Positions 4,222 through 58,375 of a stretch of DNA of 64,000 nt are shown in pieces. Origin of the DNA: Escherichia virus TH40. The stretch is taken from the sequence record MT446411.1; one strand, written 5' to 3'. The translations under genes and the position numbers were made by a program. Below the pieces are notes generated by a model, which searched no databases, was not told the origin of the DNA, and was given only the letters and a program-made list of their open reading frames with translations. How positions within the stretch are numbered: the first letter of the stretch is position 1; each line of letters starts with the position of its first letter.

Positions 4222-4262
4222 TTTATGCTCCAGTGTTTTATTGTGTAACTCAGTATGGAATC

Positions 4263-4292
4263 ATTATGCACTGGACCAACCCTGTTGTAAAC
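4263..4292 (-). promoter_or_regulatory. sigma70-type early promoter (cassette subtype I)
   Basis: Minus strand reads GTTTACA, 17-bp spacer, CATAAT; conserved leader ...CCATACTGAGTTACACAATAAAACACTGGAG then ATG. Confidence 0.55.
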
Positions 4293-4302
4293 CCCTTTAT
4301 GG

Positions 4303-4331
4303 AAAATAAAAAAGGGACTCCGAAGAGTCCC
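4303..4331 (-). terminator. rho-independent terminator
   Basis: Hairpin GGGACTCTTCGGAGTCCC followed by T-run on minus strand, directly after stop of 4337..4498 gene. Confidence 0.6.
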
Positions 4332-4336
4332 TGAAC

Positions 4337-4498
4337 TTATGCTTTCGGCTTACCAAAGCAAGCTGCATCGGCACGCAATACCGCACGAGCACGAGCCTGA
4401 AGTTTATCAGTCACCTGATTGATTCGCTTGTTGGACGCACGCTTGTAACCAGCGCGTTTGGAGGAGCCATCAACAACTTTAACTTCTTTCTTAGCCAT
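4337..4498 (-). CDS. small basic protein (53 aa)
   Basis: Hand-translated MAKKEVKVVDGSSKRAGYKRASNKRINQVTDKLQARARAVLRADAACFGKPKA; below track cut-off; followed by terminator. Confidence 0.45.
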   Translation of the reverse strand: MAKKEVKVVDGSSKRAGYKRASNKRINQVTDKLQARARAVLRADAACFGKPKA

Positions 4499-4895
4499 AT
4501 TAAATTCTCTTTAAAATAGAATGCAGGACTTATTGGCATTGCCTGCGCAAGCCCTCGAAGGGAACATTAGGTTTCGGATATTTAACGACAGGATAACCAT
4601 AAACCTCGTCAACATACCTTATAGCTCTTATCTGTTGCACACCGTTAGCTTAAAGGTTCCGGGTTCGATTTCTCGAGGATAAGATATATACTGATGGATA
4701 TATAGGCCTTGAGGCGTACTCCCGATTGGCCATCACCTCGGGGTAGCATGCACTTGCCGCTATAAGAATAACATTCAAGAGGTACACCGTAAAACTGTCG
4801 AGGTCTTAAAACTATAATGATTCGCAAATCATTAATCAGACGGTTCGACGGCTCCTCGATTTTAGCTCACACTAAGGCAGTGAATCTCCAATAAA

Positions 4896-5150
4896 TTACT
4901 TCAGGGTTACGACAAAATGACGAACAGCTTTACGGGCAGCAGATGCCAGCGGCTTAGCAAATTTCAGTTCATCTTTTGCTTCGAGCACTGCGCGAAGGTC
5001 GGTTTGAACCGGGTTAAGATGTTTGAAATACTGCAGAATTTCCAGTGCTTCGGCTTCAACATCAATAGATGCGCCGTAGTTTTCGTGACCGTTATTCCAT
5101 GCAGTGCGTTGCAGTTCAAGAGCGTGTTGTAATTGTTTGTTTAAAGACAT
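4896..5150 (-). CDS. hypothetical protein at the rIII position (84 aa from internal ATG; track ORF extends to 5285)
   Basis: ATG at 5148-5150 preceded by GAGG; position between the gene-30 cluster and gene 31 as in T4; assignment by synteny and size only. Confidence 0.45.
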   Translation of the reverse strand: MSLNKQLQHALELQRTAWNNGHENYGASIDVEAEALEILQYFKHLNPVQTDLRAVLEAKDELKFAKPLASAARKAVRHFVVTLK

Positions 5151-5290
5151 TTTAGAAGCCTCAATACGAGGTGAATATTTGGTGGACACGTTCTTCTGAA
5201 TTTCACTTCCTTTCGACAAGTCTCTCAGTTGTAGTCCACCGTTTAGGATTCTCCGGTTAACTAACTGGTCCGGCAGCCAATCCATATTAT

Positions 5291-5298
5291 TATTTATA
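5291..5298 (-). promoter_or_regulatory. possible late promoter (TATAAATA on minus strand)
   Basis: Plus strand tatttata = minus strand TATAAATA between gene 31 stop and the rIII-position gene. Confidence 0.35.
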
Positions 5299-5307
5299 AC
5301 GCTAATT

Positions 5308-5655
5308 TTACTTATAAAGACAAGGAACAGCTTTATAATGACAGGTCACAAATTTCTGCTTAACTTCTTTAGCCTGCTTAAGTCCCAGTGCAACCAGAGG
5401 ATGTGGAACGTTTGCAATCTTGCCAACCGGAAGAGGAGTCAAATCACCTACTTCGCAGAAGCCTTCAGGAACATCCGGACCAACCGAAAATACTTCACAC
5501 ATCTCCGGAATTTCACCCTGATGGAGTTTTCCGATAACGATGCCTGATGCCGTAGTTTCTTCATCACCAGCTTGCTTTGGCTCAGAAACCAAAATAATAT
5601 ATTCACCTACTGCTTTAATTGGTAATTCCATATTTAATCCATGTTGTTTGGTCAT
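5308..5655 (-). CDS. 31: co-chaperonin gp31 (GroES-like)
   Basis: [23 protein letters not shown]...[15 protein letters not shown]...[15 protein letters not shown] matches T4 gp31 as recalled. Confidence 0.9.
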
Positions 5656-5686
5656 GTATTAATAATAACACGCGTTGTTTGAAGCA

Positions 5687-7381: not shown

Positions 7382-7923
7382 CAGATGGTCTCCTGTTTAA
7401 CTTGTTTAACGATAGAAGCTTTTGTGATATCGCCTTTGATAATATAGCAATCTTCTGCAGTACCACGGTTTAACAGACGCTCTGCTTCGCCTTCCGCATA
7501 TTCTTTTGACGTATGACGAGAGTTAATCTCAATCTTGCCATTTTTAACCACAAGCAATTTCCAAACTGATGCAAGTTTTACTGGCGCAGGTTCAACTTCT
7601 GGCTTAACGCCAACTTCAGCCTGAATGAAATATTGGAATTCATCTGACAATGGACCAGCGGAAACAAACATTGCTCCACGATGTCTGTTTCCTTCGTCAG
7701 ATATTTTTGCCAAATCCATAAAATCATTTTCATCAATCAAACGAATCTCACAAACTTTTTTACCGCCGCTAACATTATCAGGTAAAATCTTAACTTCAAA
7801 TGGAGTCATACCGATGTATCCGGCAATTTGGTAATTAGCTGCCCAGCCTCCGGCAATAAATTGTTTTTTGGCATTTTCAGATACAAATTTGTAAAACTTA
7901 CCTTCTTCAAAGAAATCGCTCAT
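7381..7923 (-). CDS. hypothetical protein
   Basis: 180-aa ORF in array. Confidence 0.5.
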   Translation of the reverse strand: MSDFFEEGKFYKFVSENAKKQFIAGGWAANYQIAGYIGMTPFEVKILPDNVSGGKKVCEIRLIDENDFMDLAKISDEGNRHRGAMFVSAGPLSDEFQYFIQAEVGVKPEVEPAPVKLASVWKLLVVKNGKIEINSRHTSKEYAEGEAERLLNRGTAEDCYIIKGDITKASIVKQVKQETI

Positions 7924-7983
7924 TTTGTTTTCCTCATGTGTTGATGAAATTCATTATACACCATCCATGGTGAAAGTAAACAC

Positions 7984-8262
7984 TTAAATTGCTTCGACAA
8001 CTACCGTTTGTTTCTGGAAGTCCATTTTGCATGAAATAGCCAAAATGTGGTTATCAATTTTAAATGGAACAATTGCAAATGCTGCACCAGGCGTGAGTTG
8101 AACAGTGATTGCATCAACTGCATCCGGGAACATGATTTCCAGAATAGCAGACAAACGACCGTGCACTTTTAGTTCAGTCGACACGTCGACGCTTTCGTAT
8201 AGATAATCAGATACAATCTGACTAAAAAGTACTTTAACAATTTCAGAATATGTAGGAAACAT
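7984..8262 (-). CDS. hypothetical protein
   Basis: 92-aa ORF; promoter-like TGGTATAAT upstream. Confidence 0.45.
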   Translation of the reverse strand: MFPTYSEIVKVLFSQIVSDYLYESVDVSTELKVHGRLSAILEIMFPDAVDAITVQLTPGAAFAIVPFKIDNHILAISCKMDFQKQTVVVEAI

Positions 8263-8797: not shown

Positions 8798-8800
8798 ACA

Positions 8801-10661
<1,861 letters not shown>

Positions 10662-10665: not shown

Positions 10666-11150
10666 ACACCAAGCTCCTTATAAAGTTCTTCGCGACAAGT
10701 TTTAAGGATTTTACCAGTTTCATAAGCTGCGCTTTCAGAAACATCACCAAGCGTAGCGGCAGCTTGCATTTGACCATGGCGTTTAGCCGCATATTCAAAA
10801 CTTTTTACCAGTTCACGAATACGTTCTTTTTCATTGTATTCTTCAATAAATTCTGGGTATTCCCAAACAGGTCGCATCATACGATACCACTGTTGGATAG
10901 TAATATAATTACTTCCATCCAGGTTAATAATTTGGGAAGGCTCAATAGCACCAGGAGGATAAAAAGTTACCTGTCTTACTACATCAATACCGTCCACAAT
11001 AGCCCAAGCAAAATCGAAAGTTGCCTTCTTTTCAATTGGTGTACTTGCACAGGACCCTAATTTTAAGAGCTTTTGTAATGCAGGGGATTTAACACCTGAA
11101 ATGTATTCAGGATTAGCTACAAAAGAATTGTCACGTAAAGTCATAGTCAT
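10662..11150 (-). CDS. hypothetical protein (start at ATG 11148-11150)
   Basis: First track ATG lies inside the promoter -10; GAGGAAA SD precedes the chosen ATG. Confidence 0.5.
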
Positions 11151-11178
11151 TTCCTCAAATTTTATAATCCGTAGGAGC

Positions 11179-11207
11179 ATTATACTCTGCTCCCATGAGT
11201 TTGTACA
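11179..11207 (-). promoter_or_regulatory. sigma70-type early promoter (cassette subtype III)
   Basis: Minus strand GTGTACA, 17 bp, TATAAT; -10 flanked by inverted repeat GGAGCA/TGCTCC. Confidence 0.5.
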
Positions 11208-11311
11208 CTACTTTCCAAAAAGACCTTGAACACATAAAGTGGCCGCAATTCCAAAACAAAAACAGAATGCGCCAAATCTAACAATATCCCAACCAAGGCT
11301 ACAGGTCTCTA

Positions 11312-12446: not shown

Positions 12447-12459
12447 AATATTTTCCTCA

Positions 12460-12693
12460 TTAGTAGCGGTTATAACCCCGGGGACCAAAAGAGTTGGCAC
12501 CCAGGCGCTCATCTTTCTTTTTGGCTCTTGCTCTAAACCCAGAATCACTTGTTTGGGCTTTCAGTTCTTTTAACAATTTGGCCTTCAGGTCAGTAATGAA
12601 ACCAATCCGGCGGTCTCCCTTGTAGACATAGATTCCATCATTTCTGTCACCATATGCCTGTGTAACTCTGTCATTTGTAATTAAGTTTAACAT
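12460..12693 (-). CDS. paralogue of the Alc-position protein N-terminus (77 aa)
   Basis: Shares YGDR(N/H)DGIYVYKG..IG..TDL block with the downstream gene; GAGGA SD. Confidence 0.45.
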   Translation of the reverse strand: MLNLITNDRVTQAYGDRNDGIYVYKGDRRIGFITDLKAKLLKELKAQTSDSGFRARAKKKDERLGANSFGPRGYNRY

Positions 12694-12724
12694 GTTTTGG
12701 TCCTCATCAGTAGTTGATGGAACC

Positions 12725-12753
12725 ATTATGTATAGAAAGGAGGGGCTTGTACA
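12725..12753 (-). promoter_or_regulatory. sigma70-type early promoter (cassette subtype II)
   Basis: Minus strand GTGTACA, 17 bp, CATAAT; leader CCATCAACTACTGATGAGGA. Confidence 0.5.
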
Positions 12754-12764
12754 CCCCTTTTTTA

Positions 12765-13901
12765 TTATTCAGGAAGGATTACTTCCGCCTGGTAGTCCAA
12801 CGGAATGTAAAGTTTATGATTTTTAAGGAAAACTTTATTGATTTGAGCAATCGTTTGTTCAGTTTCCTGTGGGCGTTGATAGGTGTTCATTAATACGGAG
12901 AACAATCCCGGGTATGGTTTACACAACTCTTGACCTTTAATCGCAAACTCGCGTCGGTCTTTTCCTGCTAACTGTTTTTGTGCATCAAGCAACAATCCCA
13001 GTGTATTGGACAGATAATCCAGATGCGTTGCAGTAAAGGCAGTAACTTTTTCACGAGCATAAGTATCGCCAGTAAACATGGCAATAACATCATCTGCCCC
13101 GCCAGCAACAACAACTTCAAACAGTCGCTCATTATTATTAATGGAGTCTTTAGTATGATGCAGAGCACAATACCATTCTGTTTTCATCTTGAACTTCTGC
13201 CCGTTAGCCATCTCATAGACGAAGCCTTCAATCTCTTTCATACCGCGAACATTCTCAATGGTTGCCGGGTCATATGCTTCAACCAGGAAAGGACGAAGCG
13301 CTGCATCTTTGAACAGCTCCTGATAAGGAATATATTCACCAGTTTCATTATGACGAATGTTCAGTAAAATCAGGTCACGTTCCTGGTAAGGCAAAACAAT
13401 GCGGTTGGTCGGTGCAACATATTCCATGTTGCATGTATAACCAGCTTCAGTGATTTCAGTCACACGAGCCCTGAATGCACTGCGATGTTCTTGTTTAAAC
13501 ACCTGCAAGGATTCAGCTGCTTGGGAGCTTTTGATTGACCCCTTTGATTTAAAGGCGATATTAGTCTGGTCCATATAAGTAGAAACCAAGCTACCATCAG
13601 CTTTTGCAGTAACCAGGACAACCTCATCAAGGTTAAGGTCCATGGTCATTGGATTCTCACCCAGATTAAAGAATTTTTCCATAGGGCGAGCAGCAATGCG
13701 AACTGGACCATTGTCATCCATTTCAAACATAATGCCACGGCACTCCAGCGCATCATCAAGGAGCCAATCACTATAGGAAGCATAGTTATAGCTAAAGACG
13801 CGGAACTTAGTTTCAAATGGAGAAACAAAATCCGTATAGAAAAACTTACCTTTATCGGATTCGGCGCAAAGCTTCATTAAGTTATCATATAATTCAATCA
13901 T
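12765..13901 (-). CDS. rnlA: RNA ligase 1
   Basis: 378 aa; FSYNYASYSDWLLDDALECRGIMFE and adenylation site KADGSL match T4 Rnl1 as recalled. Confidence 0.9.
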   Translation of the reverse strand: MIELYDNLMKLCAESDKGKFFYTDFVSPFETKFRVFSYNYASYSDWLLDDALECRGIMFEMDDNGPVRIAARPMEKFFNLGENPMTMDLNLDEVVLVTAKADGSLVSTYMDQTNIAFKSKGSIKSSQAAESLQVFKQEHRSAFRARVTEITEAGYTCNMEYVAPTNRIVLPYQERDLILLNIRHNETGEYIPYQELFKDAALRPFLVEAYDPATIENVRGMKEIEGFVYEMANGQKFKMKTEWYCALHHTKDSINNNERLFEVVVAGGADDVIAMFTGDTYAREKVTAFTATHLDYLSNTLGLLLDAQKQLAGKDRREFAIKGQELCKPYPGLFSVLMNTYQRPQETEQTIAQINKVFLKNHKLYIPLDYQAEVILPE

Positions 13902-20490: not shown

Positions 20491-20730
20491 TCACGCTTTC
20501 TTAGCGATTTTCCAGTCAGCTTTAAATTGGTCAACGTCAGAGTGATGAATCCAGAAACCAGATGAGCTGCCATCTTCATAAAGAGGACAACCATCGCACT
20601 CATCTTTCCAACCCATCGTGCATAAAGTTTCTTCAGCTTTTTCCAGAGCTTCTGGATTGTTACCCTGGATTGTGAAGTACCATTTGCCTTTAACTTCTGA
20701 ATCTTTGATGCTCTCACGTTTTAATTTCAT
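20491..20730 (-). CDS. hypothetical protein
   Basis: 79-aa ORF; early promoter upstream. Confidence 0.5.
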   Translation of the reverse strand: MKLKRESIKDSEVKGKWYFTIQGNNPEALEKAEETLCTMGWKDECDGCPLYEDGSSSGFWIHHSDVDQFKADWKIAKKA

Positions 20731-20771
20731 TTTATTCTCCAGTGTTTTAGTTGTTAACTCAGTATGGGACC

Positions 20772-20800
20772 ATTATGTCATAGCCCCATTTGGTTGTACA
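20772..20800 (-). promoter_or_regulatory. sigma70-type early promoter (cassette subtype I)
   Basis: Minus strand TGTACA, 17 bp, CATAAT; conserved subtype I leader. Confidence 0.5.
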
Positions 20801-20807
20801 TTACTTT

Positions 20808-21074
20808 TTAAATTTTATCAAGCCATTTGCCAAGTTTAATCATTTCCTTGTTGGCTTTTTCCATACTTCTGAACTTAACTAATAAAGGATATGTATCTAC
20901 ACCCATAACAAGATTGGTTGCAAGACTGTGCTCACCCACAAGCCATAATGAGTGGGTTTGAACATCCAGACCATAATTTCTGTCTTTATGCAAACGCACA
21001 CCCATCACTTCAAATTGTTCACTGGCTTTTTCCACTGCATCCAGGAAATCATCTTTAGTCATGTTAAATTCCAA
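20808..21074 (-). CDS. hypothetical protein
   Basis: 88-aa ORF in array. Confidence 0.45.
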   Translation of the reverse strand: MEFNMTKDDFLDAVEKASEQFEVMGVRLHKDRNYGLDVQTHSLWLVGEHSLATNLVMGVDTYPLLVKFRSMEKANKEMIKLGKWLDKI

Positions 21075-21485: not shown

Positions 21486-21713
21486 TTAAACTTCAATCAA
21501 ATTCATATAAAATTTAGTGTCTTCAGGGTACATACCATCACAATATTCATTTTGCATAAAGCGGGTAATGTCTTCAAGAGGACCTTGGACTTCAATTTGA
21601 ATACCAAAGACTTCAGTATCTTTAATGTAAGTCATACACAAAGAAGGATACCGATTACGAATAACTTCGTAAGTGTATTCAAAATCAACGATATCAATAT
21701 TAACCTTAGCCAT
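21486..21713 (-). CDS. hypothetical protein
   Basis: 75-aa ORF in array. Confidence 0.4.
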
Positions 21714-21774
21714 TTTATTTTCCTCATGTAGTTGATAGGTCTATAGTATATCAATCATAGACCTTTGTAAACTG

Positions 21775-22137
21775 CTATTTGAACGCTTTTTGTAGAAGTT
21801 CAATGATTTGGTCGACGTTATTAGCATCCACAACACAATTAATAGAGACCGCCCCTGAAGGTGTTTTTGCATAACTGGAGTATTCGCGGAAGCAATAAAA
21901 CTCTTCTTCACTAAGTTCAAAATAATCATCACCCATACCATCATCATTATAGATTGCACCGTTAGCGCAAATGATTTCGGTCACATAATCATAGCCGTCT
22001 GCACTTGATATTGATTTAACTTCAAACCAACCACCATTTTCTTGGATGATGTCGACCATACTAGCATTCGATGAACTAATATCAATGAAAGATTTAATAC
22101 GATGTGGATTGAACTCATATTTTTTGCCGATTTCCAT
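21775..22137 (-). CDS. hypothetical protein
   Basis: 120-aa ORF; promoter upstream. Confidence 0.45.
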   Translation of the reverse strand: MEIGKKYEFNPHRIKSFIDISSSNASMVDIIQENGGWFEVKSISSADGYDYVTEIICANGAIYNDDGMGDDYFELSEEEFYCFREYSSYAKTPSGAVSINCVVDANNVDQIIELLQKAFK

Positions 22138-22175
22138 TTTTATTTCCTCAGTTGTTATCAGTAGTTGATGGAATC

Positions 22176-22204
22176 ATTATGCCTTAGCTCAAAGGACTTG
22201 TACA
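22176..22204 (-). promoter_or_regulatory. sigma70-type early promoter (cassette subtype II)
   Basis: Minus strand GTGTACA, 17 bp, CATAAT; leader CCATCAACTACTGATAACAACTGAGGA. Confidence 0.5.
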
Positions 22205-22213
22205 CTACTTTTT

Positions 22214-22242
22214 GAAAATAAAAAAGGGACCCGAAGGTCCCC
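22214..22242 (-). terminator. rho-independent terminator after gene 32
   Basis: Minus strand GGGACCTTCGGGTCCC followed by TTTTTTATTTT. Confidence 0.6.
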
Positions 22243-36323: not shown

Positions 36324-36372
36324 TTTAATTTACTCAAGTATTCAATAAGACATTCAATTATTCAGTAAGGGT

Positions 36373-36401
36373 ATTATACTATTATTCCTCTGGGTTGTAC
36401 A
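36373..36401 (-). promoter_or_regulatory. sigma70-type early promoter upstream of asiA
   Basis: Minus strand GTGTACA, 17 bp, TATAAT. Confidence 0.5.
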
Positions 36402-36546
36402 CATGATTTTCCATCTGTACAACATATTCCTGATACATCTGTTCAACTGGTTCCTGGAACTTAAAATCAGCTCCAAGGAATTCCTCAAAGCAAGCCTGCT
36501 CGTGCGTACGTTGACCGGTGATGGTGTTCTCTAAGTTATGACTCAT
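36382..36546 (-). CDS. small acidic protein (54 aa)
   Basis: Hand-translated MSHNLENTITGQRTHEQACFEEFLGADFKFQEPVEQMYQEYVVQMENHVYNPEE; below track cut-off. Confidence 0.4.
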   Translation of the reverse strand: MSHNLENTITGQRTHEQACFEEFLGADFKFQEPVEQMYQEYVVQMENHVYNPEE

Positions 36547-38807: not shown

Positions 38808-39023
38808 TTATCCCTTAATAGATTTCATGTAATTTGATGCATATGATTGTACCACAGTACGTTTCATATGGGAAGTAGAAACAATAACATCAATCGCTTG
38901 TTTACGTTCTTCTTTAGAATTCGCCAGTTTGAACATATCAAAGTAGTAATAGCAAGCTTCTTTGTTAGATTTGAATTTAGCGTTAATGTATTCTTGACCT
39001 TCATTCTGTTGTGCAGTAAACAT
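38808..39023 (-). CDS. hypothetical protein (ATG at 39021-39023)
   Basis: Track start codon is TTG; the first ATG is preceded by TTGGAGAATAAA. Confidence 0.45.
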   Translation of the reverse strand: MFTAQQNEGQEYINAKFKSNKEACYYYFDMFKLANSKEERKQAIDVIVSTSHMKRTVVQSYASNYMKSIKG

Positions 39024-39072
39024 TTTATTCTCCAAAGTTTTTGTGATTCATTGTGTAACTCAGTATGGAATC

Positions 39073-39101
39073 ATTATGCATCAGGTCAAGGGTCATGTAC
39101 A
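39073..39101 (-). promoter_or_regulatory. sigma70-type early promoter (cassette subtype I)
   Basis: Minus strand TGTACA, 17 bp, CATAAT; conserved subtype I leader. Confidence 0.5.
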
Positions 39102-39126
39102 CTACTTTTTTAAATATTTTAAAATA

Positions 39127-39160
39127 AAAACTAGGACCCCGAAGGGTCCTAGTTTTTATC
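39127..39160. terminator. bidirectional rho-independent terminator
   Basis: Palindrome CTAGGACCCCGAAGGGTCCTAG with A-run on one side and T-run on the other. Confidence 0.55.
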
Positions 39161-41182: not shown

Positions 41183-41245
41183 ATTTTCCTCAAGGGCGTC
41201 CAAAGACGCCAGTTAATTTAAGATTATGGCGATGCCATTGCATCA
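41180..41245 (-). repeat. direct repeat B, copy 2
   Basis: Contains perfect hairpin GGCGTCCAAAGACGCC (41195..41210). Confidence 0.8.
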
Positions 41246-41437: not shown

Positions 41438-41887
41438 TTAATAACTCTGCAGAATGAATTTAAAGTTATCAGCAAGCATGCGATTCATTTCTGAAAGGGT
41501 CTGGCAATCAGAACTATGCGAGCGAGTGAACGCCATCGCAATTTGACCTTTACCATAACCAGTTGTCAGAGGTTTCATTTTAGAAACTGGGACAAACAGG
41601 ACTTCATAGATAACCCCATTGTTCGCCATTGTGCGAGACAGTTGAGAACGCTGTTTGCGGATGTGGCTTAATACAGTGTCAAACCCTTGTTGTGAACGTT
41701 GGTTACCAACATAAAACCGTGCAGCAACAATACGTGATTCGCCTTCACCTTTAACCACGAAATAAAAACCTGGTTGAGTGATAGCTTCTTTAGTTGGGCG
41801 ACCTGCAACATAATTACCATTATGAATATAAGCAACAGTGGTAGCGCCAGCATTCAGTACGTCACGACGGGTCATGTAAGTAGTCAT
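41438..41887 (-). CDS. ndd: nucleoid disruption protein
   Basis: 149 aa; [28 protein letters not shown]...[12 protein letters not shown] matches T4 Ndd as recalled. Confidence 0.9.
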
Positions 41888-41931
41888 ATTAATTTCCTCA
41901 GTAAGTTAAAGTTTTTTGCTCCAGTGGGGTC

Positions 41932-41960
41932 ATTATACTCTGACCCCAAGAGTTTGTACA
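41932..41960 (-). promoter_or_regulatory. sigma70-type early promoter upstream of ndd (cassette subtype III)
   Basis: Minus strand TGTACA, 17 bp, TATAAT; -10 sits in loop of inverted repeat GGGGTCA/TGACCCC. Confidence 0.5.
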
Positions 41961-42308
41961 CTATTTTTGAAGTTGTTCTAAAATAAATCCGCTCGTATAA
42001 AAGGAAGCATTATACACCTTATTCAGCGGGGTCAAAGCGCGCTTATAGGTATTACGCAATTCTTTGATAACATTTTCATAACTCACGTAGTAAGCACTAT
42101 GATAATAACCTGGCTCCATACTCATACGAAATTTAATGAACCGATAAAAGCCTGTTTCCGGGTCTTGGACGAAAACGAAATCAGCACTCGTCATAACTTT
42201 TGGATGTACGTCAGGAATCATACTTTGATTGAATGCCTCCGACGCCTCCTGAAGGCTAATCTGTTTAAAGAACATAACTTTAGCATTACCAAAAAATACT
42301 TTAGACAT
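41961..42308 (-). CDS. hypothetical protein
   Basis: 115-aa ORF in array. Confidence 0.45.
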   Translation of the reverse strand: MSKVFFGNAKVMFFKQISLQEASEAFNQSMIPDVHPKVMTSADFVFVQDPETGFYRFIKFRMSMEPGYYHSAYYVSYENVIKELRNTYKRALTPLNKVYNASFYTSGFILEQLQK

Positions 42309-42955: not shown

Positions 42956-43072
42956 TCAAAAGAAATAGTTAAAGTAAACGCGCACATGGTCAATCATAAA
43001 AACAATTGGGAAAATGCTCAGGACAACAAACAGTACAAACATGTTCCAAATGGCTTTAAGTAACTTTTTCAT
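42956..43072 (-). CDS. small membrane peptide (38 aa)
   Basis: Hand-translated MKKLLKAIWNMFVLFVVLSIFPIVFMIDHVRVYFNYFF; CTGGAG SD; promoter upstream. Confidence 0.35.
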   Translation of the reverse strand: MKKLLKAIWNMFVLFVVLSIFPIVFMIDHVRVYFNYFF

Positions 43073-43098
43073 AATCATCTCCAGTAGTTGATAGGTTC

Positions 43099-43126
43099 AT
43101 TATACTACAACCACTGGAGATGTACA
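43099..43126 (-). promoter_or_regulatory. sigma70-type early promoter
   Basis: Minus strand TGTACA, 16 bp, TATAAT. Confidence 0.45.
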
Positions 43127-43217
43127 CTCTTTTATGCAAGTTTCATTAATAATAAACTAAAACAAACGCAAATTACTGGGATACACAACATCCAGATAAG
43201 GCACCAGGTTTTGCTGC

Positions 43218-43484
43218 TCAAAATATCACCTCTTTGATTTCAATCAATCCTCTGTACAATGCGGTGCGAAGGTCATAAAGAATATCTATGCCATCAACAT
43301 TATCCAGCTTGCCATCAATAAGCTTTTTCAAATCTTCCTTTGACGCAACTAGTGGGCGAAGAAATTTACAATCAGAAAGAGACAATTCTGTGGTAACATC
43401 ATCACCATCACCTGACGCATCATACATAGCGGCAACAACCATACCTGTAACTTTGTGTTTGGCGTAGTATAATTTAATATCCAT
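43218..43484 (-). CDS. hypothetical protein (88 aa from ATG 43482-43484)
   Basis: CTGGAGAAACAA SD; the track N-terminal extension runs through the promoter. Confidence 0.4.
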   Translation of the reverse strand: MDIKLYYAKHKVTGMVVAAMYDASGDGDDVTTELSLSDCKFLRPLVASKEDLKKLIDGKLDNVDGIDILYDLRTALYRGLIEIKEVIF

Positions 43485-43517
43485 TTGTTTCTCCAGTTGG
43501 TAACTCAGTATGGAATC

Positions 43518-43546
43518 ATTATATATAGACTCCATACTGATGTACA
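43518..43546 (-). promoter_or_regulatory. sigma70-type early promoter (cassette subtype I)
   Basis: Minus strand TGTACA, 17 bp, TATAAT; subtype I leader. Confidence 0.5.
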
Positions 43547-43557
43547 CTACTTTTTGA

Positions 43558-43833
43558 TTAATTGTGCATTTGTTCTTTAACTTCTTTATATGCACCAACT
43601 GCATTCACGACCCCAGTGAAATCTGCTGTTCCGCGATATAGATAGAAAGCGATTTCAGTCAGGTGATAAACTTCAAATTCTGAAAGATAAATGATAACGT
43701 CATAATAGGCAACTTGCCCCTGGACTTCGTTGAATACCACATCAAAAATTTCATGGGTTGGAAAATTGATGTTGTTGTTTTTGAGTGCTTGAATAAGAAT
43801 TTGTTTGATGTGATGAGTAGTAACGTGTTCCAT
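43558..43833 (-). CDS. hypothetical protein (91 aa from ATG 43831-43833)
   Basis: AATGAGGACATTATC SD. Confidence 0.4.
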   Translation of the reverse strand: MEHVTTHHIKQILIQALKNNNINFPTHEIFDVVFNEVQGQVAYYDVIIYLSEFEVYHLTEIAFYLYRGTADFTGVVNAVGAYKEVKEQMHN

Positions 43834-48461: not shown

Positions 48462-48720
48462 TCTCCTGCAATATTTTTCTCATACTACGCATGGTAGCTT
48501 TATGTTCTTGGTCATGGTATATCAATGCAAGGAGTGCTTCAATTCGCTCCTCTGGGACCTTCTGACCATCCTTTATGCTCATGGCTGATGTTCTTACAGC
48601 CAACAAGTAACTTCGCTTCCTGTCGCTATCTGGGAGCTCCTGTACCTTCCTCAAGCCTGCTTCCATAATACAACGAGCAACATTCTGCAGATTAACTAAA
48701 CTTCCGTCAGACATAATCAT
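48421..48720 (-). CDS. hypothetical protein
   Basis: 99-aa ORF; GAGGTGAAAAT SD; promoter upstream. Confidence 0.45.
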   Translation of the reverse strand: MIMSDGSLVNLQNVARCIMEAGLRKVQELPDSDRKRSYLLAVRTSAMSIKDGQKVPEERIEALLALIYHDQEHKATMRSMRKILQEIGNDKLQSESGTV

Positions 48721-48737
48721 ATTTTCACCTCAAGGAC

Positions 48738-48766
48738 ATCTTAACACAATTTTTGTGGTCTGTACA
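48738..48766 (-). promoter_or_regulatory. sigma70-type early promoter
   Basis: Minus strand TGTACA, 17 bp, TAAGAT; immediately after the terminator. Confidence 0.45.
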
Positions 48767-48790
48767 TAATAAAAAAGGACCCGAAGGTCC
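48767..48790 (-). terminator. rho-independent terminator
   Basis: Minus strand GGACCTTCGGGTCC followed by TTTTTTATTAT. Confidence 0.6.
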
Positions 48791-48795
48791 TTTGA

Positions 48796-48948
48796 CTACT
48801 CAACTTTATAGACTTGCCCATACGCGGTATAGTATTCACCATCCCAGGTCTCACACATAATGGTGACAAAGGATGCAAACAAGGGTTTAGTATCGGCCCA
48901 CAGATAACCGTATTCGCCATTTGACAACGTAACCCACCACTTTTTCAT
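48796..48948 (-). CDS. small protein (50 aa)
   Basis: Hand-translated MKKWWVTLSNGEYGYLWADTKPLFASFVTIMCETWDGEYYTAYGQVYKVE; AGGAGAAG SD; between gene 39 and terminator. Confidence 0.4.
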   Translation of the reverse strand: MKKWWVTLSNGEYGYLWADTKPLFASFVTIMCETWDGEYYTAYGQVYKVE

Positions 48949-51965: not shown

Positions 51966-52526
51966 TTAGGCAAAATGAATATCAGCATACTCAACGATAA
52001 AGCTCTCAGGAACAACCTTAAAGGTTCCAAGGAACACGATATTATACAGTTTGACCCCTTCTTCAACCCACTGGTCTGTGATGTAACCAGACATGCTAGT
52101 GGTTTCATAAGTCGGACCATACATGCAATTGTATTCAAACGGTTTAGGTGAAACAAAAAAGACACCTTTGCCCAATTTCCATTTAAAATCAACCCCAACA
52201 TGAGACTGGTCAATGATTTCAACGTCTTGAGCAATTACGCCACGAATATCATTGCTTTCGCACACATATCCATCATGGGATTCAACTTCTTCAACCACAG
52301 GGAGGTTGGCGGCAGTAATAGCAGTTGATTCCAGGAATTTAGCACGCACATAAGCGAATTGAGTTTCAGTCTGACCATTTTTGGGAATGATACGCACCTT
52401 TACTTCATTATCAGGATGGTCAACAAAAATATCAGCACGAATACTGACAACCTCAACAAAACGTCCAGCGGCTCTTGAACGAGATTTTTTGGATACGCGA
52501 ACGATTTCGCCAGCTTCAACTTTCAT
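51966..52526 (-). CDS. hypothetical protein, paralogue of 52606..53358
   Basis: 186 aa; shared C-terminal block TDQW(V/I)E..V.L.N.V....F.VVP.S. Confidence 0.5.
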   Translation of the reverse strand: MKVEAGEIVRVSKKSRSRAAGRFVEVVSIRADIFVDHPDNEVKVRIIPKNGQTETQFAYVRAKFLESTAITAANLPVVEEVESHDGYVCESNDIRGVIAQDVEIIDQSHVGVDFKWKLGKGVFFVSPKPFEYNCMYGPTYETTSMSGYITDQWVEEGVKLYNIVFLGTFKVVPESFIVEYADIHFA

Positions 52527-52568
52527 AATTTTCTCTCTTGGTTAATAAGTTTATTCTCCAGTGGGGTC

Positions 52569-52597
52569 ATTATACTCTGACCCCAAGAGTTTGTACA
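52569..52597 (-). promoter_or_regulatory. sigma70-type early promoter (cassette subtype III)
   Basis: Near-identical to the ndd promoter cassette, including the GGGGTCA/TGACCCC inverted repeat. Confidence 0.5.
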
Positions 52598-52605
52598 CTT
52601 TAAAT

Positions 52606-53358
52606 TTAATTAAAAATTTCAACAACCATGGAACGTGGTACAACAGTAAATTCACCAGCATGGACAACGTTCAGGAGTTCAACATCATCTTCAATCCACT
52701 GGTCTGTTACCCAACCACAAATGGAACTGTTAAATGGGCGTTTGATTTGAACTGGTTTACACAGCAAGTCAATAGGGTCACCCAGTTCGCTAACTTCTTC
52801 CAGCAGTACAGATTCACGTGGATAAAGGATAGCTTCAAGATTGTCACCTGATTCATTGACTGCAGTAAATTCAAAGATGCTTTGGTGATTGTGGTACTTA
52901 ACTGTTTTAACGGTAAATGGAGCAAATCCAAAAATACCTTTCAGTACGCGCCAACCGGCATTCAATGCATTAGTATTATCAAAATCACCATATCCAACAA
53001 GTTGATAGGTTTTGTCAACTTTGATAGGAGTTTCTTCAACTTCTTTGAAGAGTTCAATCTCAGCTTCATAAATCATAATTTTTTCTACTTCATTAGTATC
53101 AAGGCGACGTGCATGTAGAATATATGCTTTATCAAACCAGTTACTTTTTACAAAAGTTTCAACAATAAATTCACCTTCACCTAAAGCATCAGTCAGAGTA
53201 TTATACCCAGAAACCATAGCTGCATTTTGAATAATAGGTTCAATCAGTTGATAAGTTTTGTTAATTTCAATAGTCATATTTTGTTTCTCAAGTTTTAATG
53301 GTTTAATTGGGCGAACATACATACTTACAACATCAAAGTCAATAAATTCTGGTTTCAT
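52606..53358 (-). CDS. hypothetical protein, paralogue of 51966..52526
   Basis: 250-aa ORF. Confidence 0.5.
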   Translation of the reverse strand: MKPEFIDFDVVSMYVRPIKPLKLEKQNMTIEINKTYQLIEPIIQNAAMVSGYNTLTDALGEGEFIVETFVKSNWFDKAYILHARRLDTNEVEKIMIYEAEIELFKEVEETPIKVDKTYQLVGYGDFDNTNALNAGWRVLKGIFGFAPFTVKTVKYHNHQSIFEFTAVNESGDNLEAILYPRESVLLEEVSELGDPIDLLCKPVQIKRPFNSSICGWVTDQWIEDDVELLNVVHAGEFTVVPRSMVVEIFN

Positions 53359-53615
53359 TATGCAACCTTATTGAACATCGCCAGTTGGTTAGGTTGTACA
53401 ACCATAATTTCACGACGGCCTTTTGCGTTTGACACGTTCAAGTAGATGCCTTTGTTCATGTCTGTTTCTTTATCATATACCGCAATTTTATTGACAGTAA
53501 AGATTTTACCACGAATATTTGTAAATGCACATTCAAACGCTTCAGTCAGACCTGCTTCAGCAGCTTGAAGAGCAGACATTTCATATTGTTGGCCAATTTC
53601 AAAAGAAGTAATCAT
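53358..53615 (-). CDS. hypothetical protein (85 aa from ATG 53613-53615)
   Basis: GATGAGGATAACAAA SD; the track N-terminus runs through promoter DNA. Confidence 0.4.
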   Translation of the reverse strand: MITSFEIGQQYEMSALQAAEAGLTEAFECAFTNIRGKIFTVNKIAVYDKETDMNKGIYLNVSNAKGRREIMVVQPNQLAMFNKVA

Positions 53616-53646
53616 TTTGTTATCCTCATCAGTAGTTGATGAGATG

Positions 53647-53675
53647 ATTATGTCTCTTTCCATTGGCCTTGTACA
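53647..53675 (-). promoter_or_regulatory. sigma70-type early promoter (cassette subtype II)
   Basis: Minus strand GTGTACA, 17 bp, CATAAT; leader CATCTCATCAACTACTGATGAGGA. Confidence 0.5.
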
Positions 53676-53682
53676 CTACTTT

Positions 53683-54366
53683 TTATCGTTTTTTCGGTAA
53701 AGATAACGGGTCTGCATCTTCTTCGGAAGGAACTTCATCCAAACCAAGAGCATAGCGCTGGGCATACTTAAGCATCAAAATATCTTTCGCGCAGTCATGC
53801 ACCGAATCATGCGCCACAAATCCATCTAAAGTCCCCTTCGGTAATGGAGTTTCACACATCTTACGGACGAGTGATAGGGCTTCAATTGCCGTCCTGATAT
53901 CTCGCTGGTTCCAGAATACAACCGGCTCCAGGCCGTAGGTATTCAATTCACGCTCGGGAATACCCTCATTGCGCTGTAGGTCACGGATAAGGTCAACAAA
54001 CAACGGGAAGTCAAAAGACATTCCACGACACCACATAAGGCTTTCGTATTTGTTAATTCCATTACCATTCAGATAATCAATTGCTTGTTGGATACCAGTC
54101 AGAGTATCAACATCTTGCGCAGAAGGAGCCAAGTTAACACGAGCTTCTGGAGATTGTTTTTTCCACCAACCCATAGTTGTTGTGTCAAACAGACGTTTAC
54201 CTTTCTGGTATTCTAGGCTGAACTTAATGCGTTTACCGCGATTAACCAGAGTTTCAAAAGATTCCACAATAGCAGGGTCAGATTCAAATGTAATCAGAGC
54301 CAGGTCAATAACGGCCCCCTTCGAGCCGTTTCCCAGAGTTTCAAAGTCAATAATAGCATCAATCAT
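53683..54366 (-). CDS. dexA: exonuclease A (DEDDh 3'-5' exonuclease)
   Basis: 227 aa; N-terminal IDFETLG exonuclease motif; position upstream of dda as in T4. Confidence 0.85.
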   Translation of the reverse strand: MIDAIIDFETLGNGSKGAVIDLALITFESDPAIVESFETLVNRGKRIKFSLEYQKGKRLFDTTTMGWWKKQSPEARVNLAPSAQDVDTLTGIQQAIDYLNGNGINKYESLMWCRGMSFDFPLFVDLIRDLQRNEGIPERELNTYGLEPVVFWNQRDIRTAIEALSLVRKMCETPLPKGTLDGFVAHDSVHDCAKDILMLKYAQRYALGLDEVPSEEDADPLSLPKKR

Positions 54367-55919: not shown

Positions 55920-56215
55920 GCCAATTTTACTCGCTTAACATTAACAGTATCTAAAACCAATTTCAGTTCTCTTGCACGGTCTTCTGTAGGGAACACAGTT
56001 TTGGATTCCCGCTTATCAAACCACCATTTTCTTGGAATGTACAAAGTTTCAATACGTCCCATACTTAAATATCTTTTTGTGGTGTATGAATAGTTGGCAA
56101 GTTCATAATCCGCGGCAGCCTTTGTGGTATACAAGGTAACCTTCCCATCATACTCCAATGGATGTTCAAATCCATCCTTATCTTTGTAAACCAATACATA
56201 AGCGTAGTACATCAC
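55916..56215 (-). CDS. hypothetical protein
   Basis: 99-aa ORF, ATGA overlap with dda. Confidence 0.45.
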   Translation of the reverse strand: MMYYAYVLVYKDKDGFEHPLEYDGKVTLYTTKAAADYELANYSYTTKRYLSMGRIETLYIPRKWWFDKRESKTVFPTEDRARELKLVLDTVNVKRVKLA

Positions 56216-56216
56216 A

Positions 56217-56963
56217 TTAACCTCTAATCAGTTTAAAAATTGACGCGTTCAAAGGTAGACCACGTTTCAGTTTTAATTTACCAATAAAACCAATCTTCTC
56301 AAAACGCTCAAGACCTTGAATGATTTTATCATAGCAATCAAAAAGCGTTTCAGCATTAGTTAATTTCTTGGTAACTTTCCAGTCATTACCCTTGAGCAGG
56401 ACATTCAATTTAGTAAGCTCATGACCTTCTGCAATACGGGAACCATCAATGCGAGCCTTCAGAGCAACCATTTTTAATTGGTTTTCTTTTGACTGCTCTG
56501 ATTTACTCATTTGGGCATAATGCTTAACGCGATTCTCACGTTTGTGCTGGATGTTCTTTATATGGTTGTATGACTTTTTAATCTGTTCCCATTTCTCTGA
56601 AGTCAGATTTAACTTTTCAATCTTCTTGGCAGATGGGCGAGCAATTTTTACAGCAACATCATCACGACGTTGTTTAAGCTCACCCAGGGACCAATCAGAA
56701 CGCATGGTATTATATTTCTTTTTAACAGGAATAACATTACCCTTGATATAACCAATATCATTGTTAAAACGTTCTAATGATAACTTCTCGTCTTCAATAG
56801 AGTTATTAAATGCTTCACCAGAATAAGCACAAACTTTTTGGTCAAGAATGTTAACCAGGTAATTGAAATCCAGGTTAAAGTCCTTACCACGACGTTTAGC
56901 AGAAGCTTGAGTGTGGTCCAGACGACGTTTAACTTTCAGCGTTTTGGTTTTTGATAAAGTCAT
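56217..56963 (-). CDS. hypothetical basic protein at the srd position
   Basis: 248-aa ORF between ART genes and dda; product assigned by position only. Confidence 0.45.
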   Translation of the reverse strand: MTLSKTKTLKVKRRLDHTQASAKRRGKDFNLDFNYLVNILDQKVCAYSGEAFNNSIEDEKLSLERFNNDIGYIKGNVIPVKKKYNTMRSDWSLGELKQRRDDVAVKIARPSAKKIEKLNLTSEKWEQIKKSYNHIKNIQHKRENRVKHYAQMSKSEQSKENQLKMVALKARIDGSRIAEGHELTKLNVLLKGNDWKVTKKLTNAETLFDCYDKIIQGLERFEKIGFIGKLKLKRGLPLNASIFKLIRG

Positions 56964-57010
56964 GATATTTTTCTCATCTTACGGACGATTGAATAACTCA
57001 GTACGGAATC

Positions 57011-57039
57011 ATTATACACTATTCATCTTTCATGTACAC
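57011..57039 (-). promoter_or_regulatory. sigma70-type early promoter (cassette subtype I)
   Basis: Minus strand TGTACA, 17 bp, TATAAT; subtype I leader. Confidence 0.5.
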
Positions 57040-57098
57040 TACTTTTTTGCCTTTAACGCTTTTATTTTTACCGTGTATAATGGTTCTAAGGTCTTTGG

Positions 57099-57713
57099 TT
57101 AATTCAAAACAGTTAAATGCCAAACAGTATACAGGTTGTTCAATGGGTGTGTCTCAATTAAATCTACGCGAAGCGTAGTCCCAGCGGGAAACATAAACTC
57201 ATCCTCATCATTAACCAGGTGTAAGTTTGACTTCCTGGTTGCTTCTGGATATGCACCATTGAACTCTTCAGGAGGAGCACCGCAAATCATTTTAAAGATT
57301 GCTTCCTGATAGTTATACGCATAAGGTGCATTGTTTATGCAGAAAATATTCCTTGTACCATAGAAGCTATATGATGCGAAATTTCTTGCAACCTGCCAGT
57401 CCCTGGAAAAACTCATCACACGATTGAACTCAATTGTTGCACCAACATATCTTAAATCTTCCAGGTATTCCATGGTTTTCTTTGATATACCACGGAACAA
57501 TGCTGCAGGCGGTGCAGTGTTCAGATTGTTGCGGATAATCCTGGTTAAGTCTTCTTGAATCAGGTCGGGTTTATTTTCCATACACTGCCAGAGTACTGAT
57601 TGCTCATTATCTGTATAAAGGGCATCAATCTCCGCTTGACATTGGTCACGAAAAGACTCACTAGAAGCGGCCGTGTCAATAATTCCATTCAAAACGTCAT
57701 CAGTGTACAGCAT
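57099..57713 (-). CDS. modA: ADP-ribosyltransferase, ModA-like (204 aa from ATG 57711-57713)
   Basis: R-S-E ART triad candidates FRGIS, SFSRD, EDEFMFP; position and size as T4 modA. Confidence 0.7.
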   Translation of the reverse strand: MLYTDDVLNGIIDTAASSESFRDQCQAEIDALYTDNEQSVLWQCMENKPDLIQEDLTRIIRNNLNTAPPAALFRGISKKTMEYLEDLRYVGATIEFNRVMSFSRDWQVARNFASYSFYGTRNIFCINNAPYAYNYQEAIFKMICGAPPEEFNGAYPEATRKSNLHLVNDEDEFMFPAGTTLRVDLIETHPLNNLYTVWHLTVLN

Positions 57714-57743
57714 TTTATTATCCTCATCAGTAGTTGATAGGAA

Positions 57744-57772
57744 CATCTTAACGTGTCTTATTGCTCTTGTAC
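57744..57772 (-). promoter_or_regulatory. sigma70-type early promoter (cassette subtype II)
   Basis: Minus strand GTGTACA, 17 bp, TAAGAT; leader CCTATCAACTACTGATGAGGA. Confidence 0.45.
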
Positions 57773-58318
57773 ACAGTCAAGAACATAATAATCATCAACA
57801 AATCCAGCATCAACTACCACGAATTTCTGGTCAACTGGAACAAACCATTCAAGCTCAGAATCAATCATGTCCATGTATTCTTCACGCCTTAATGTAGCTG
57901 CCTGGGCGGAACCAGAAGCAGTATTGAAGAATTCCAGTGGAACGTCAAGCGCGATTTTGCGCATCGCATCATGGTAACAAAAAGCTTTGGTCCGATTCAA
58001 TCTGACGATAGTCCTAGTCGCATATTCCATTGCAGCAAAATCCCTGGCAATACCATAGTCTTCTGTAAAGGATGTTATCCGTCCAAATTCAAAAGGTTGC
58101 ATTGATTCTTTTGCTTCATCTAACAAATCAATCTCTTGCTGGGTTACCCCGCGCCACAAGACTGTATCGGGTATAGACAACCTTGACTTGATGATTGAGT
58201 TGACATTTGAATGCAAGGTCTTATCAACCTTTGATGTACGACATTCAAATAATGAAGCTATCTCCATTTCACTAAATTTTAACTGGTTGGGTTCGGTATC
58301 AGATTTGATGATGTTCAT
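57758..58318 (-). CDS. modB: ADP-ribosyltransferase, ModB-like
   Basis: 186 aa; LWRG, SFTED, EWFVP triad candidates; paralogue of the adjacent ART. Confidence 0.7.
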   Translation of the reverse strand: MNIIKSDTEPNQLKFSEMEIASLFECRTSKVDKTLHSNVNSIIKSRLSIPDTVLWRGVTQQEIDLLDEAKESMQPFEFGRITSFTEDYGIARDFAAMEYATRTIVRLNRTKAFCYHDAMRKIALDVPLEFFNTASGSAQAATLRREEYMDMIDSELEWFVPVDQKFVVVDAGFVDDYYVLDCVQEQ

Positions 58319-58345
58319 AATGGCCTCTCTGTTGTAAGAAAGGTC

Positions 58346-58375
58346 ATTATGTCATTAGGAGGGGAGTAAGTAAAC
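58346..58375 (-). promoter_or_regulatory. sigma70-type early promoter
   Basis: Minus strand GTTTACT, 17 bp, CATAAT. Confidence 0.5.

Follow-up and report, generated by a model that had tools for sequence, protein, structure and literature searches.

The early promoter of phage T4 is described as an UP element, a -35 element GTTTAC, a TGn motif and a -10 element (Hinton 2010, PMC2988021; Nolan et al. 2006, PMC1524935). In phages RB49 and phi1, a composite cassette termed PeSL, combining an early promoter with a stem-loop, was defined with stem-loops in five positional classes, including one 'overlapping the -10' (Arbiol et al. 2010, PMC2839356); in reporter assays, strong promoter activity was observed, along with terminator-like activity of a stem-loop (PMC2839356). 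The element was later extended to PST/T4 and nt-1/KVP40, with a T-even consensus of TTTACW-N17-TAYWAT (Comeau et al. 2014, PMC4122927). The features that define PeSLs include mini-circles formed when cassettes recombine with one another. For JS98, only 'PeSL-like sequences' near gene 43 were named (Arbiol et al. 2010, PMC2839356), and we found no published PeSL analysis of the genus Gaprivervirus. Here we describe a promoter cassette that recurs on the minus strand of Escherichia virus TH40 (sequence record MT446411.1), within a stretch of 64,000 nt referred to below as the window.

The repeats are very probably the immediate-early promoters of a Gaprivervirus T4-like phage, organised as PeSL-type promoter/stem-loop cassettes. 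As in PeSLs, an AT-rich tract, a sigma70-type early promoter and a stem-loop come first, and the Shine–Dalgarno sequence (SD) of the following gene, with its start codon, completes the layout. The stem-loops lie upstream, over the -35, over the -10 (some extending into the spacer) or downstream, the promoter consensus is near that of PST/T4, and at least one exchange between relatives, at frd.1, took place at the level of the cassette. Read 5' to 3' on the minus strand, a complete cassette would consist of an A-rich UP-like tract, the -35 element GTKTAC, a spacer of 16-17 nt, a -10 element YATAAT or TAYTAT, a C-rich discriminator with a conserved start region and a ribosome-binding module that is often GGAGAAUAAAAUG, with a stable stem-loop upstream of, inside or just 3' of the promoter. 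A preliminary description of this DNA had recognised repeated early promoters and their leaders, and its interpretation was supported in part. It overlooked the stable stem-loop in most cassettes and the fact that the whole arrangement had already been published as PeSL. No new kind of system is revealed; a known element type is recognised in another genus, which provides an immediate-early promoter map for the Gaprivervirus group.

The pattern GTKTACW-N17-YATAAT was matched exactly 11 times, on the minus strand only, against 0.01 matches expected from dinucleotide-preserving shuffles, an excess over chance of approximately 1000-fold. With up to one mismatch allowed there were 14 matches against 1.1 expected. 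Promoters had been claimed at 16 coordinates, and extraction of these sites with their flanks found a promoter-like site at all 16, that listed at 57744 lying at 57745. The consensus originally proposed described 12 of the 16 at no more than one mismatch and failed at 43099 and 57011, which have a 16-nt spacer, and at 48738 and 57745, which have the -10 hexamer TAAGAT. Three additional copies, at 3820, 7953 and 21743, were found with a wider pattern in which a T4-style -10 (TAYTAT) and spacers of 16-18 nt were allowed; they had been overlooked because their -10 is TAYTAT or their spacer is 16 nt. This gives a total of 19 cassettes, all on the minus strand. A relaxed scan confined to positions upstream of genes gave no further credible candidates beyond these 19, and the late tail-fibre genes, which occupy the plus strand at 25.4-36 kb, contain no cassette. 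All 19 sites fit GTKTAC-N16/17-YATAAT or TAYTAT, with an upstream consensus of aaAAAGta, and all are intergenic, 18-53 nt 5' of an ATG with an SD. A generic sigma70 scan was rejected as a detector, as it was non-discriminating (75 sites against 57 in shuffles). Identity as middle (MotA) promoters would be unlikely, the -35 region being GTKTAC and the MotA box TGCTT.

The same regions of T4, RB69 and JS98 were scanned and their promoters grouped by downstream protein. T4 promoters at 7186 (motB), 13157 (modB), 129890 (30.7), 166778 (ndd.4) and 133302 (cd.2) aligned with window cassettes, so that the motB, modB, 30.7, ndd.4 and cd.2-side copies are directly homologous to T4 promoters; the motB promoter reads GTTTACAaactcttgggaccagagTATAATggtcccgtggag in T4 and GTGTACAaactcttggggtcagagTATAATgaccccactggag in the window. 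The T4 genome records consulted are annotated without promoter features, and a literature search found no global map of T4 5' ends. The cassettes resemble T4 early promoters in -35 motif, spacing, A-tract and the early genes that follow. They differ in having G for T at the third base of the -35 (GTGTAC) in 11 of the 19 window copies, with ATGTAC in two more, in a -10 that is often CATAAT rather than the TACTAT of T4, and in mostly missing the TGG that is common directly 5' of the T4 -10. Early sigma70-type identity, as proposed originally, thus has good homology support from the T4 early-promoter consensus, from T4 early-gene orthologues downstream and from homologous promoters in T4, RB69 and JS98. 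Host sigma70 RNA polymerase would be expected to fire these promoters immediately upon infection.

The genomic context is consistent with this identity. By megablast, the closest group was the VR7/SP18 T4-like coliphages of the genus Gaprivervirus (identity 93-97%, coverage patchy). Phages of this genus are frequent among therapeutic and environmental coliphage isolates. Gene order was read from annotated genomes (VR7, SP18, T4 and Yersinia phage P8); the window extends from gene 30 to gene 61 and over this range is collinear with VR7, SP18 and T4. A first minus-strand block (gene 30, cd, pseT, alc, rnlA, nrdAB, td, frd, 32, 59 and rnh) is followed by a plus-strand block (tail-fibre genes 34-38 and t) and a second minus-strand block, comprising asiA, motA, 52, ndd, denB, rIIB, rIIA and 39 and then motB, dexA, dda, srd, modA, modB, soc, 56 and 61. 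The genes directly downstream of cassettes are 30.7, 30.8, a cd-region open reading frame (ORF), a pseT-region ORF, alc, frd.1, frd.3 and frd.2a in the first block, and asiA, the ORF before motA, ndd, ndd.4, a small ORF, rIIA.1, motB, a motB.1-side ORF, srd, modA and modB in the second. Judged by orthology, these are the classical T4 immediate-early set. Small variable ORFs follow the cassettes at 11179, 43099, 43518 and in the frd region.

The 19 cassettes are given below, named by position. Leader types I to III are the three subtypes treated after the stem-loops, dG is predicted folding free energy and z is relative to shuffles.

3779..3883, minus strand: cassette 3820, ahead of gene 30.7; GTTTACT-N16-TATTAT; 9-bp hairpin GGTACAGGT/ACCTGTACC spanning the -10 (dG -15.8), with the same hairpin in T4, RB69 and JS98; leader 3' end GGAGAATAAAATG.
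4219..4327, minus strand: cassette 4263, ahead of gene 30.8; type I leader; dG -13.6; terminator GGGACTC-TTCG-GAGTCCC plus T-run directly upstream.
7921..8016, minus strand: cassette 7953; GTTTACT-N16-TATAAT; type II-like leader catcaacacatgaggaaaacaaaatg; orthologous to the T4 promoter at 133302, ahead of cd.2.
11148..11243, minus strand: cassette 11179; type III architecture, with hairpin GGGAGCA/TGCTCCT around the -10; the gene behind it (10666-11141) is replaced in SP18.
12691..12789, minus strand: cassette 12725, ahead of the N-terminal alc ORF; type II leader; discriminator GGTTCC pairs with SD region GAGGACC (dG -11.9), covering the SD.
20728..20836, minus strand: cassette 20772, ahead of frd.1; type I leader with perfect RegB-type GGAGAATAAAA; hairpin ATGGGGCTAT/ATGGTCCCAT spanning the -10.
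21711..21807, minus strand: cassette 21743, ahead of frd.3; GTTTACA-N17-TACTAT agacctatcaactac, the T-even standard form; breakpoints relative to SP18 and VR7 at both edges.
22135..22240, minus strand: cassette 22176, downstream of gene 32; type II leader; dG -13.9; gene 32 terminator GGGGACC-TTCG-GGTCCC directly adjoining upstream.
36321..36437, minus strand: cassette 36373, the asiA promoter; own leader; dG -13.0; inverted repeat GTTGTACA..TGTACAAC enclosing the -35 element; the JS98 sequence is the same from the -35 onwards, up to the last 5 nt before the start codon, where JS98 has one extra A.
39021..39137, minus strand: cassette 39073, ahead of the small ORF before motA; type I leader with perfect RegB-type GGAGAATAAAA; dG -16.3; terminator upstream.
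41885..41996, minus strand: cassette 41932, the ndd promoter; type III, with hairpin CTCTTGGGGTCA/TGACCCCACTGGAG around the -10 (z -2.6, dG -17.2); GGAG upstream of the real SD.
43070..43162, minus strand: cassette 43099, the ndd.4 promoter (N16); type II-like leader; spacer ATCTCCAGTGG pairs with SD region CTACTGGAGAT (z -6.6, dG -21.8).
43482..43582, minus strand: cassette 43518; type I leader; 13-bp hairpin TCAGTATGGAGTC/GATTCCATACTGA spanning the -10 (z -4.5).
48718..48802, minus strand: cassette 48738, the rIIA.1-side promoter; ATGTACA-N17-TAAGAT; short own leader; terminator directly upstream.
52524..52633, minus strand: cassette 52569, the motB promoter; type III; homology to its T4 counterpart extends to spacer and hairpin.
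53613..53711, minus strand: cassette 53647; type II leader; local hairpin CTCATCA-ACTAC-TGATGAG (dG -7.0).
56961..57074, minus strand: cassette 57011, the srd promoter (N16); chimeric leader with a type I 5' part and a atcgtccgtaagatgagaaaaatatcatg 3' part.
57711..57809, minus strand: cassette 57745, the modA promoter; GTGTACA-N17-TAAGAT; type II leader.
58316..58410, minus strand: cassette 58346, the modB promoter; hairpin CATAATG-x-CCTTTCT...AGAGAGG-x-CATTATG (z -5.8) joining the -10 and discriminator to the SD and start codon.

When the strongest local hairpin was sought between -85 and the ATG, every cassette yielded one, with a median dG of -13.6 kcal/mol against -9.3 kcal/mol at 86 other gene junctions (Mann-Whitney p=8e-5). 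RNA from the -35 to the ATG folded well below shuffles in 8 of 17 cassettes (z -2.1 to -6.6), and the transcripts of the cassettes' own promoters were predicted to be near-unstructured (0 to -5.8 kcal/mol, z -1.6 to +1.9). Own transcripts would have unstructured leaders and be well translated, and the stem-loops would act on RNA arriving from upstream, four as terminators and the others by insulating or attenuating. True terminators, with a GC stem, TTCG loop and T-run, lie upstream at 4263, 22176, 39073 and 48738, the hairpin at 48738 reaching the -35. Hairpins with the -10 in the loop were found at 3820, 11179, 20772, 21743, 41932, 43099, 43518 and 52569, and downstream hairpins reaching the SD at 12725, 53647 and 58346. 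None of the 19 cassettes has a hairpin entirely inside the spacer, and no known RNA family was matched in the window by Rfam at gathering thresholds. The terminators belong to a family with a GGACC/GGTCC-type stem, TTCG tetraloop and T-run, located at 4305-4325, 22215-22235, 39124-39159, 48774-48793 and 60205-60225, and the copies at approximately 4300 and 60200 share 77% identity across 52 nt.

The inverted repeat around the -10 noted earlier in type III was borne out as a covarying hairpin that is also present in T4. Fourteen distinct sequences from Gaprivervirus, T4, RB69 and JS98 were aligned, giving 112 cells over 8 pairs. Standard pairs were present in 99.1% of cells, with two-sided changes in 6 of the 8 pairs; 0 of 500 shuffles matched the observed values, and slid controls paired in 39-52% of cells. 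Arm variants included GGGGTCA/TGACCCC, GGGGCCA/TGGTCCC, GGGACCA/TGGTCCC, GGGAGCA/TGCTCCY, GAGAGCA/TGCTCTC and GAGAATCA/TGGTTCTC. G.U pairs occupied 10 of the 112 cells and one cell was unpaired. The G.U cells would be C.A mismatches on the opposite strand, and therefore selection appears to act on the sense strand as a single strand. This selected strand would be the read-through RNA, the non-template DNA strand being less likely. Type III is an old -10 hairpin, covarying across four genera and present at T4 motB; this covariation, T4 included, goes slightly beyond the literature that we found.

The three near-identical leader subtypes described previously are real and cover 13-15 of the 19 cassettes; the leaders at 36373, 48738 and 58346 are unique to their own sites and share nothing with the other copies. 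The type I motif CCATACTGAGTTA is exact at 4263, 20772, 39073 and 43518 and has one change at 57011, and the type II motif ATCAACTACTGA is exact at 12725, 22176, 53647 and 57745 with one change at 43099. For type III, 41932 and 52569 share 96% identity across 50 nt. The subtypes are combinations of a few short known modules. What had been overlooked is that the promoter runs on without a break into the 5' part of the leader, as discriminator and start region, a stretch common to T4, RB69 and JS98. Type II starts with the T-even-wide start-site pattern CCTATCAAC, and a -10 followed by agaCCTATCAAC(TA) is widespread among early promoters of JS98, RB69 and T4. Type I, GTGTACA ... YATAAT gattCCATACTGAGTTA, takes the place of the T-even start pattern at several orthologous promoters. 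This variant is absent from T4, RB69 and JS98 and is present outside the genus in Dhakavirus IME341, at frd.1, and in Morganella phage MP1 of the genus Gualtarvirus. In MP1, positions 360-476 hold a terminator and GTGTACA-N17-CATAAT-gatcccatactgagttaac, nearly identical to type I and annotated as a promoter by the authors of that genome; its presence there may reflect either horizontal spread or an old polymorphism. At srd, the 5' part of the leader (type I) differs from JS98 and RB69, and the 3' part atcgtccgtaagatgagaaaaatatcatg is common to all three.

Fifteen cassettes have orthologues in the three genomes P8, VR7 and SP18; for these, variable alignment columns were counted over four Gaprivervirus genomes including the window. 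The percentages were 1.9% for the -35, 2.2% for the -10, 3.1% for the first 17 nt 3' of the -10, 3.7% for the remaining leader, 3.3% for codon positions 1 and 2, 10.8% for the spacer, 14.8% for codon position 3 and 22.4% for the 45 nt 5' of the -35. Leaders are therefore as constrained as first and second codon positions and four to five times less variable than third positions (p ~1e-7), in agreement with the proposal of selection on the 5' untranslated region. This measurement of purifying selection on the leaders adds a little to the literature that we found. The selected promoter unit extends from approximately -45 to the start codon.

The constraint on the 5' half of the leader (gattCCATACTGAGTTA or agaCCTATCAACTA) could equally be conservation as DNA, with no RNA function. 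These bases would belong to a very strong promoter, as its discriminator and initial transcribed sequence, and would be adjusted to favour open-complex formation and promoter escape. We regard the two possibilities as evenly balanced. Scanning the window, CCATACTGAGTTA and ATCAACTACTGA were found solely directly behind a promoter, always abutting a -10. Information content 3' of the -10 peaks in the first 8 bases in the window, JS98, RB69 and T4, with a common CC(T/C)AT pattern. The conserved 5' part at srd stops near +17 and has been swapped independently of the 3' leader, an end point inside the limit of the RNA polymerase footprint. This footprint reaches roughly +20. A preference for C at -3 to -1 (Nolan 2006, PMC1524935) is also in line with a role as DNA. 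Against this, the same bases form the 3' arm of the covarying, G.U-tolerant hairpin in several cassettes, which argues for a single-stranded role of the sense strand, and the remaining leader is equally constrained.

T4 genes e, soc, 49 and I-TevI have a promoter inside the 5' arm of a hairpin that, in read-through RNA, sequesters the ribosome-binding site (PMC3014915). The stem-loops of the cassettes might likewise be translational gates with early promoters, in which promoter bases absent from a cassette's own transcript would pair with its SD or start codon, leaving read-through RNA silent and only promoter-proximal transcripts translated; we consider this a reasonable possibility, though on balance a doubtful one. 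For modB, RNAalifold folded six sequences, drawn from four genera, into a predicted hairpin extending from the -10 hexamer as far as the start codon, and three of its pairs show compensatory changes. This conserved hairpin likewise goes slightly beyond the literature that we found. Predicted accessibility of the modB ribosome-binding region fell from 0.70 in its own transcript to 0.18 in read-through RNA. In a test of SD accessibility, native promoter sequence was compared with shuffled promoter sequence in read-through RNA for the 19 window cassettes and 51 from T4, RB69 and JS98. Accessibility at modB was below all 100 promoter-part shuffles (rank 0/100), and modB of T4 and RB69 ranked 2/100. 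Low ranks were also obtained at 4263 (4 of 100) and 12725 (7 of 100). Complementarity between spacer and SD is present at ndd.4 of the window, JS98 and T4, each by a different sequence, and the motB.2 spacers of JS98 and RB69 are perfect 11-13 nt complements of their own SD regions.

As a general rule, masking of the SD was rejected: median ranks were around 50 (35-53 of 100) and the Wilcoxon test was not significant in the window, T4, RB69 or JS98. At 43518, 20772, 11179 and the 30.7 promoters, the -10 hairpin instead increases SD accessibility (ranks 94-100). The model that we keep is therefore one in which gating would be a property of a subset of cassettes (modB, ndd.4, 30.8 and alc), whose stem-loops would mask the ribosome-binding site. 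As in T4 e, soc, 49 and I-TevI, the 5' arm in these four precedes the predicted start site and is paired to the SD or AUG; the internal promoter is early here and late there, and only a minority of window cassettes show the pairing. We also suggest, as a tentative and rather unlikely generalisation, that T-even early genes contain a conserved class of promoter-embedded hairpins with a 5' arm in the untranscribed spacer, -10 or discriminator and a 3' arm in the leader, folded only in read-through RNA. Covariation across four genera and G.U tolerance are consistent with this reading. If it is true, the same gene would be handled differently according to transcript origin, either with its ribosome-binding site and RegB site masked or exposed or with read-through attenuated, and the late-gene logic of e, soc and 49 would extend to the immediate-early modB, ndd.4 and motB.

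The strong intergenic site for RegB with S1 in T4 early mRNAs has the consensus GG*AGRAYARAA (Uzan & Miller 2010, PMC3014915). On the coding strand of the window, perfect GGAGRAYARAA occurs three times, always as GGAGAAUAAAA-type and always in a cassette leader (3820, 20772 and 39073); each is GGAGAATAAAA, and 9 nt separate its first G from the ATG. Two more leaders, at 4263 and 52569, match at 10 of 11 positions. Altogether there are seven sites at >=10/11, five in cassette leaders and two antisense to tail-fibre genes, and the leaders of cassettes other than these five do not fit the RegB consensus. Use of GGAG as the SD is commoner among cassette genes (6 of 19) than among the remaining genes (9 of 93; Fisher p=0.02). 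The type III GGAG lies far upstream of the real SD and is kept in the T4 motB leader, so that a cleavage site fits better than a ribosome-binding site. The suggestion that GGAG in the leaders marks RegB-type sites is supported for types I and III, with perfect sites only in cassette leaders. The T4 30.8 and ndd.6 leaders carry the same module as these perfect sites. Type II leaders use GAGGA and would escape RegB. The enzyme gene regB is annotated in the type species VR7. We infer that RegB would cleave at cassette leaders, the GGAG and A-rich modules being targets of the RegB/S1 nuclease by which early mRNAs would later be inactivated.

The leader modules would be kept by purifying selection and at times moved between loci or phages via homologous recombination at shared modules. 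The clearest example is frd.1, where the window and SP18 are wholly different from VR7 and JS98 upstream of GGAGAATAAAATG and homologous downstream. Dhakavirus IME341 carries the frd.1 allele of the window, and a JS98-like allele (JS98 is also a Dhakavirus) is present in VR7. Both cassette alleles are thus present in both genera, with the junction in the shared ribosome-binding module GGAGAATAAAATG; this polymorphism common to two genera goes slightly beyond the literature that we found, and implies exchange of whole promoter cassettes between genera at a 13-nt ribosome-binding module. In addition, frd.3 with its own cassette lies between frd.2 and frd.2a in the window (21486-21783) and directly after frd.1 in VR7 (20818-21096), and is a single gene that, compared with VR7, has changed position between cassettes. 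In SP18, 379 nt are inserted at 4308-4310, where cassette 4263 has its upstream edge, and P8 has a 154-nt insertion with its junction inside the 43518 leader.

Similarity of the leaders might be a functionless by-product of recent copying, by gene conversion or duplication. The replacement at frd.1, the chimeric srd leader, the P8 junction within the 43518 leader and the near-identical pair 41932/52569 are all compatible with copying. We nevertheless judge it improbable as the explanation of the similarity. Orthologous leaders group by locus rather than by genome and vary far less than synonymous sites, types II and III are kept at orthologous loci as distant as T4, and type I is found in a Morganella phage of another genus. 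Insertion of a small non-autonomous mobile element between genes, either a miniature inverted-repeat transposable element (MITE)-like sequence or a homing-endonuclease target, is more improbable by far and was rejected on anatomy and orthology. The copies are short, repeated, intergenic and in a single orientation, and homing endonuclease genes are frequent in the region. However, the copies have no terminal inverted repeats or target duplications in common, orthologous positions are occupied in four genera, and the homing-endonuclease breakpoints (8740, 15515, 23219, 45000, 50871 and 60509) lie away from cassettes.

Spread of cassettes by recombination, as proposed in the preliminary description, is accordingly upheld for one clear cassette replacement and not as general breakpoint enrichment. 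Among 54 breakpoint edges relative to P8, VR7 and SP18, eight were in cassettes, where a uniform model predicts 2.6 (p=0.004), and many of the other breakpoints were homing-endonuclease gene insertions. Preferred breakage at cassettes was rejected, the enrichment holding against the uniform background and not against other gene junctions. With respect to these three relatives, cassettes participate in modular exchange and are not favoured over other gene boundaries.

Several observations weigh against identity as PeSL-type cassettes. At gene junctions, 6 of 40 edges fell at cassettes against 17% expected (p=0.70), in contrast to the association of PeSLs with indels or replacements between close relatives. 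Many cassettes precede conserved early genes (asiA, motA, ndd, motB, srd, modA and modB), whereas PeSLs were originally described ahead of ORFans in hyperplastic regions. The eight -10-spanning hairpins have no U-rich tail and were rejected as canonical intrinsic terminators. The T-even stem-loop was placed upstream of the promoter in the 2014 paper (PMC4122927), whereas many stem-loops span the -10 in the window, and in T4 at motB and 30.7. Finally, regB itself lies outside the window. Recognition of the cassettes would nonetheless be of use in annotation, in engineering, as portable strong early promoters with defined leaders, and in tests of RegB and read-through control.

Other features of the window were noted in passing. 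At 11943-12726, alc is present as two ORFs, annotated in the same way (alca/alcb) in VR7 and SP18, and early promoter cassette 12725 would drive the short N-terminal ORF. A tandem duplication at 40730-41244, with a unit of ~255-265 nt and copies 95-96% identical, holds small ORFs between 52.1/ac and ndd; this stretch is missing in P8, where 15 nt correspond to 446 nt of the window. Relative to P8 there is also a 699-nt insertion at 8740-9439, which encodes a 254-aa ORF (8762-9526, plus strand), and a MobE-like homing endonuclease overlapping the end of pseT is annotated at this position in VR7 and SP18. In its distal part (32706-34345), tail-fibre gene 37 either shares 68% identity with P8, VR7 and SP18 or finds no match there, a high divergence which is consistent with host-range variation.

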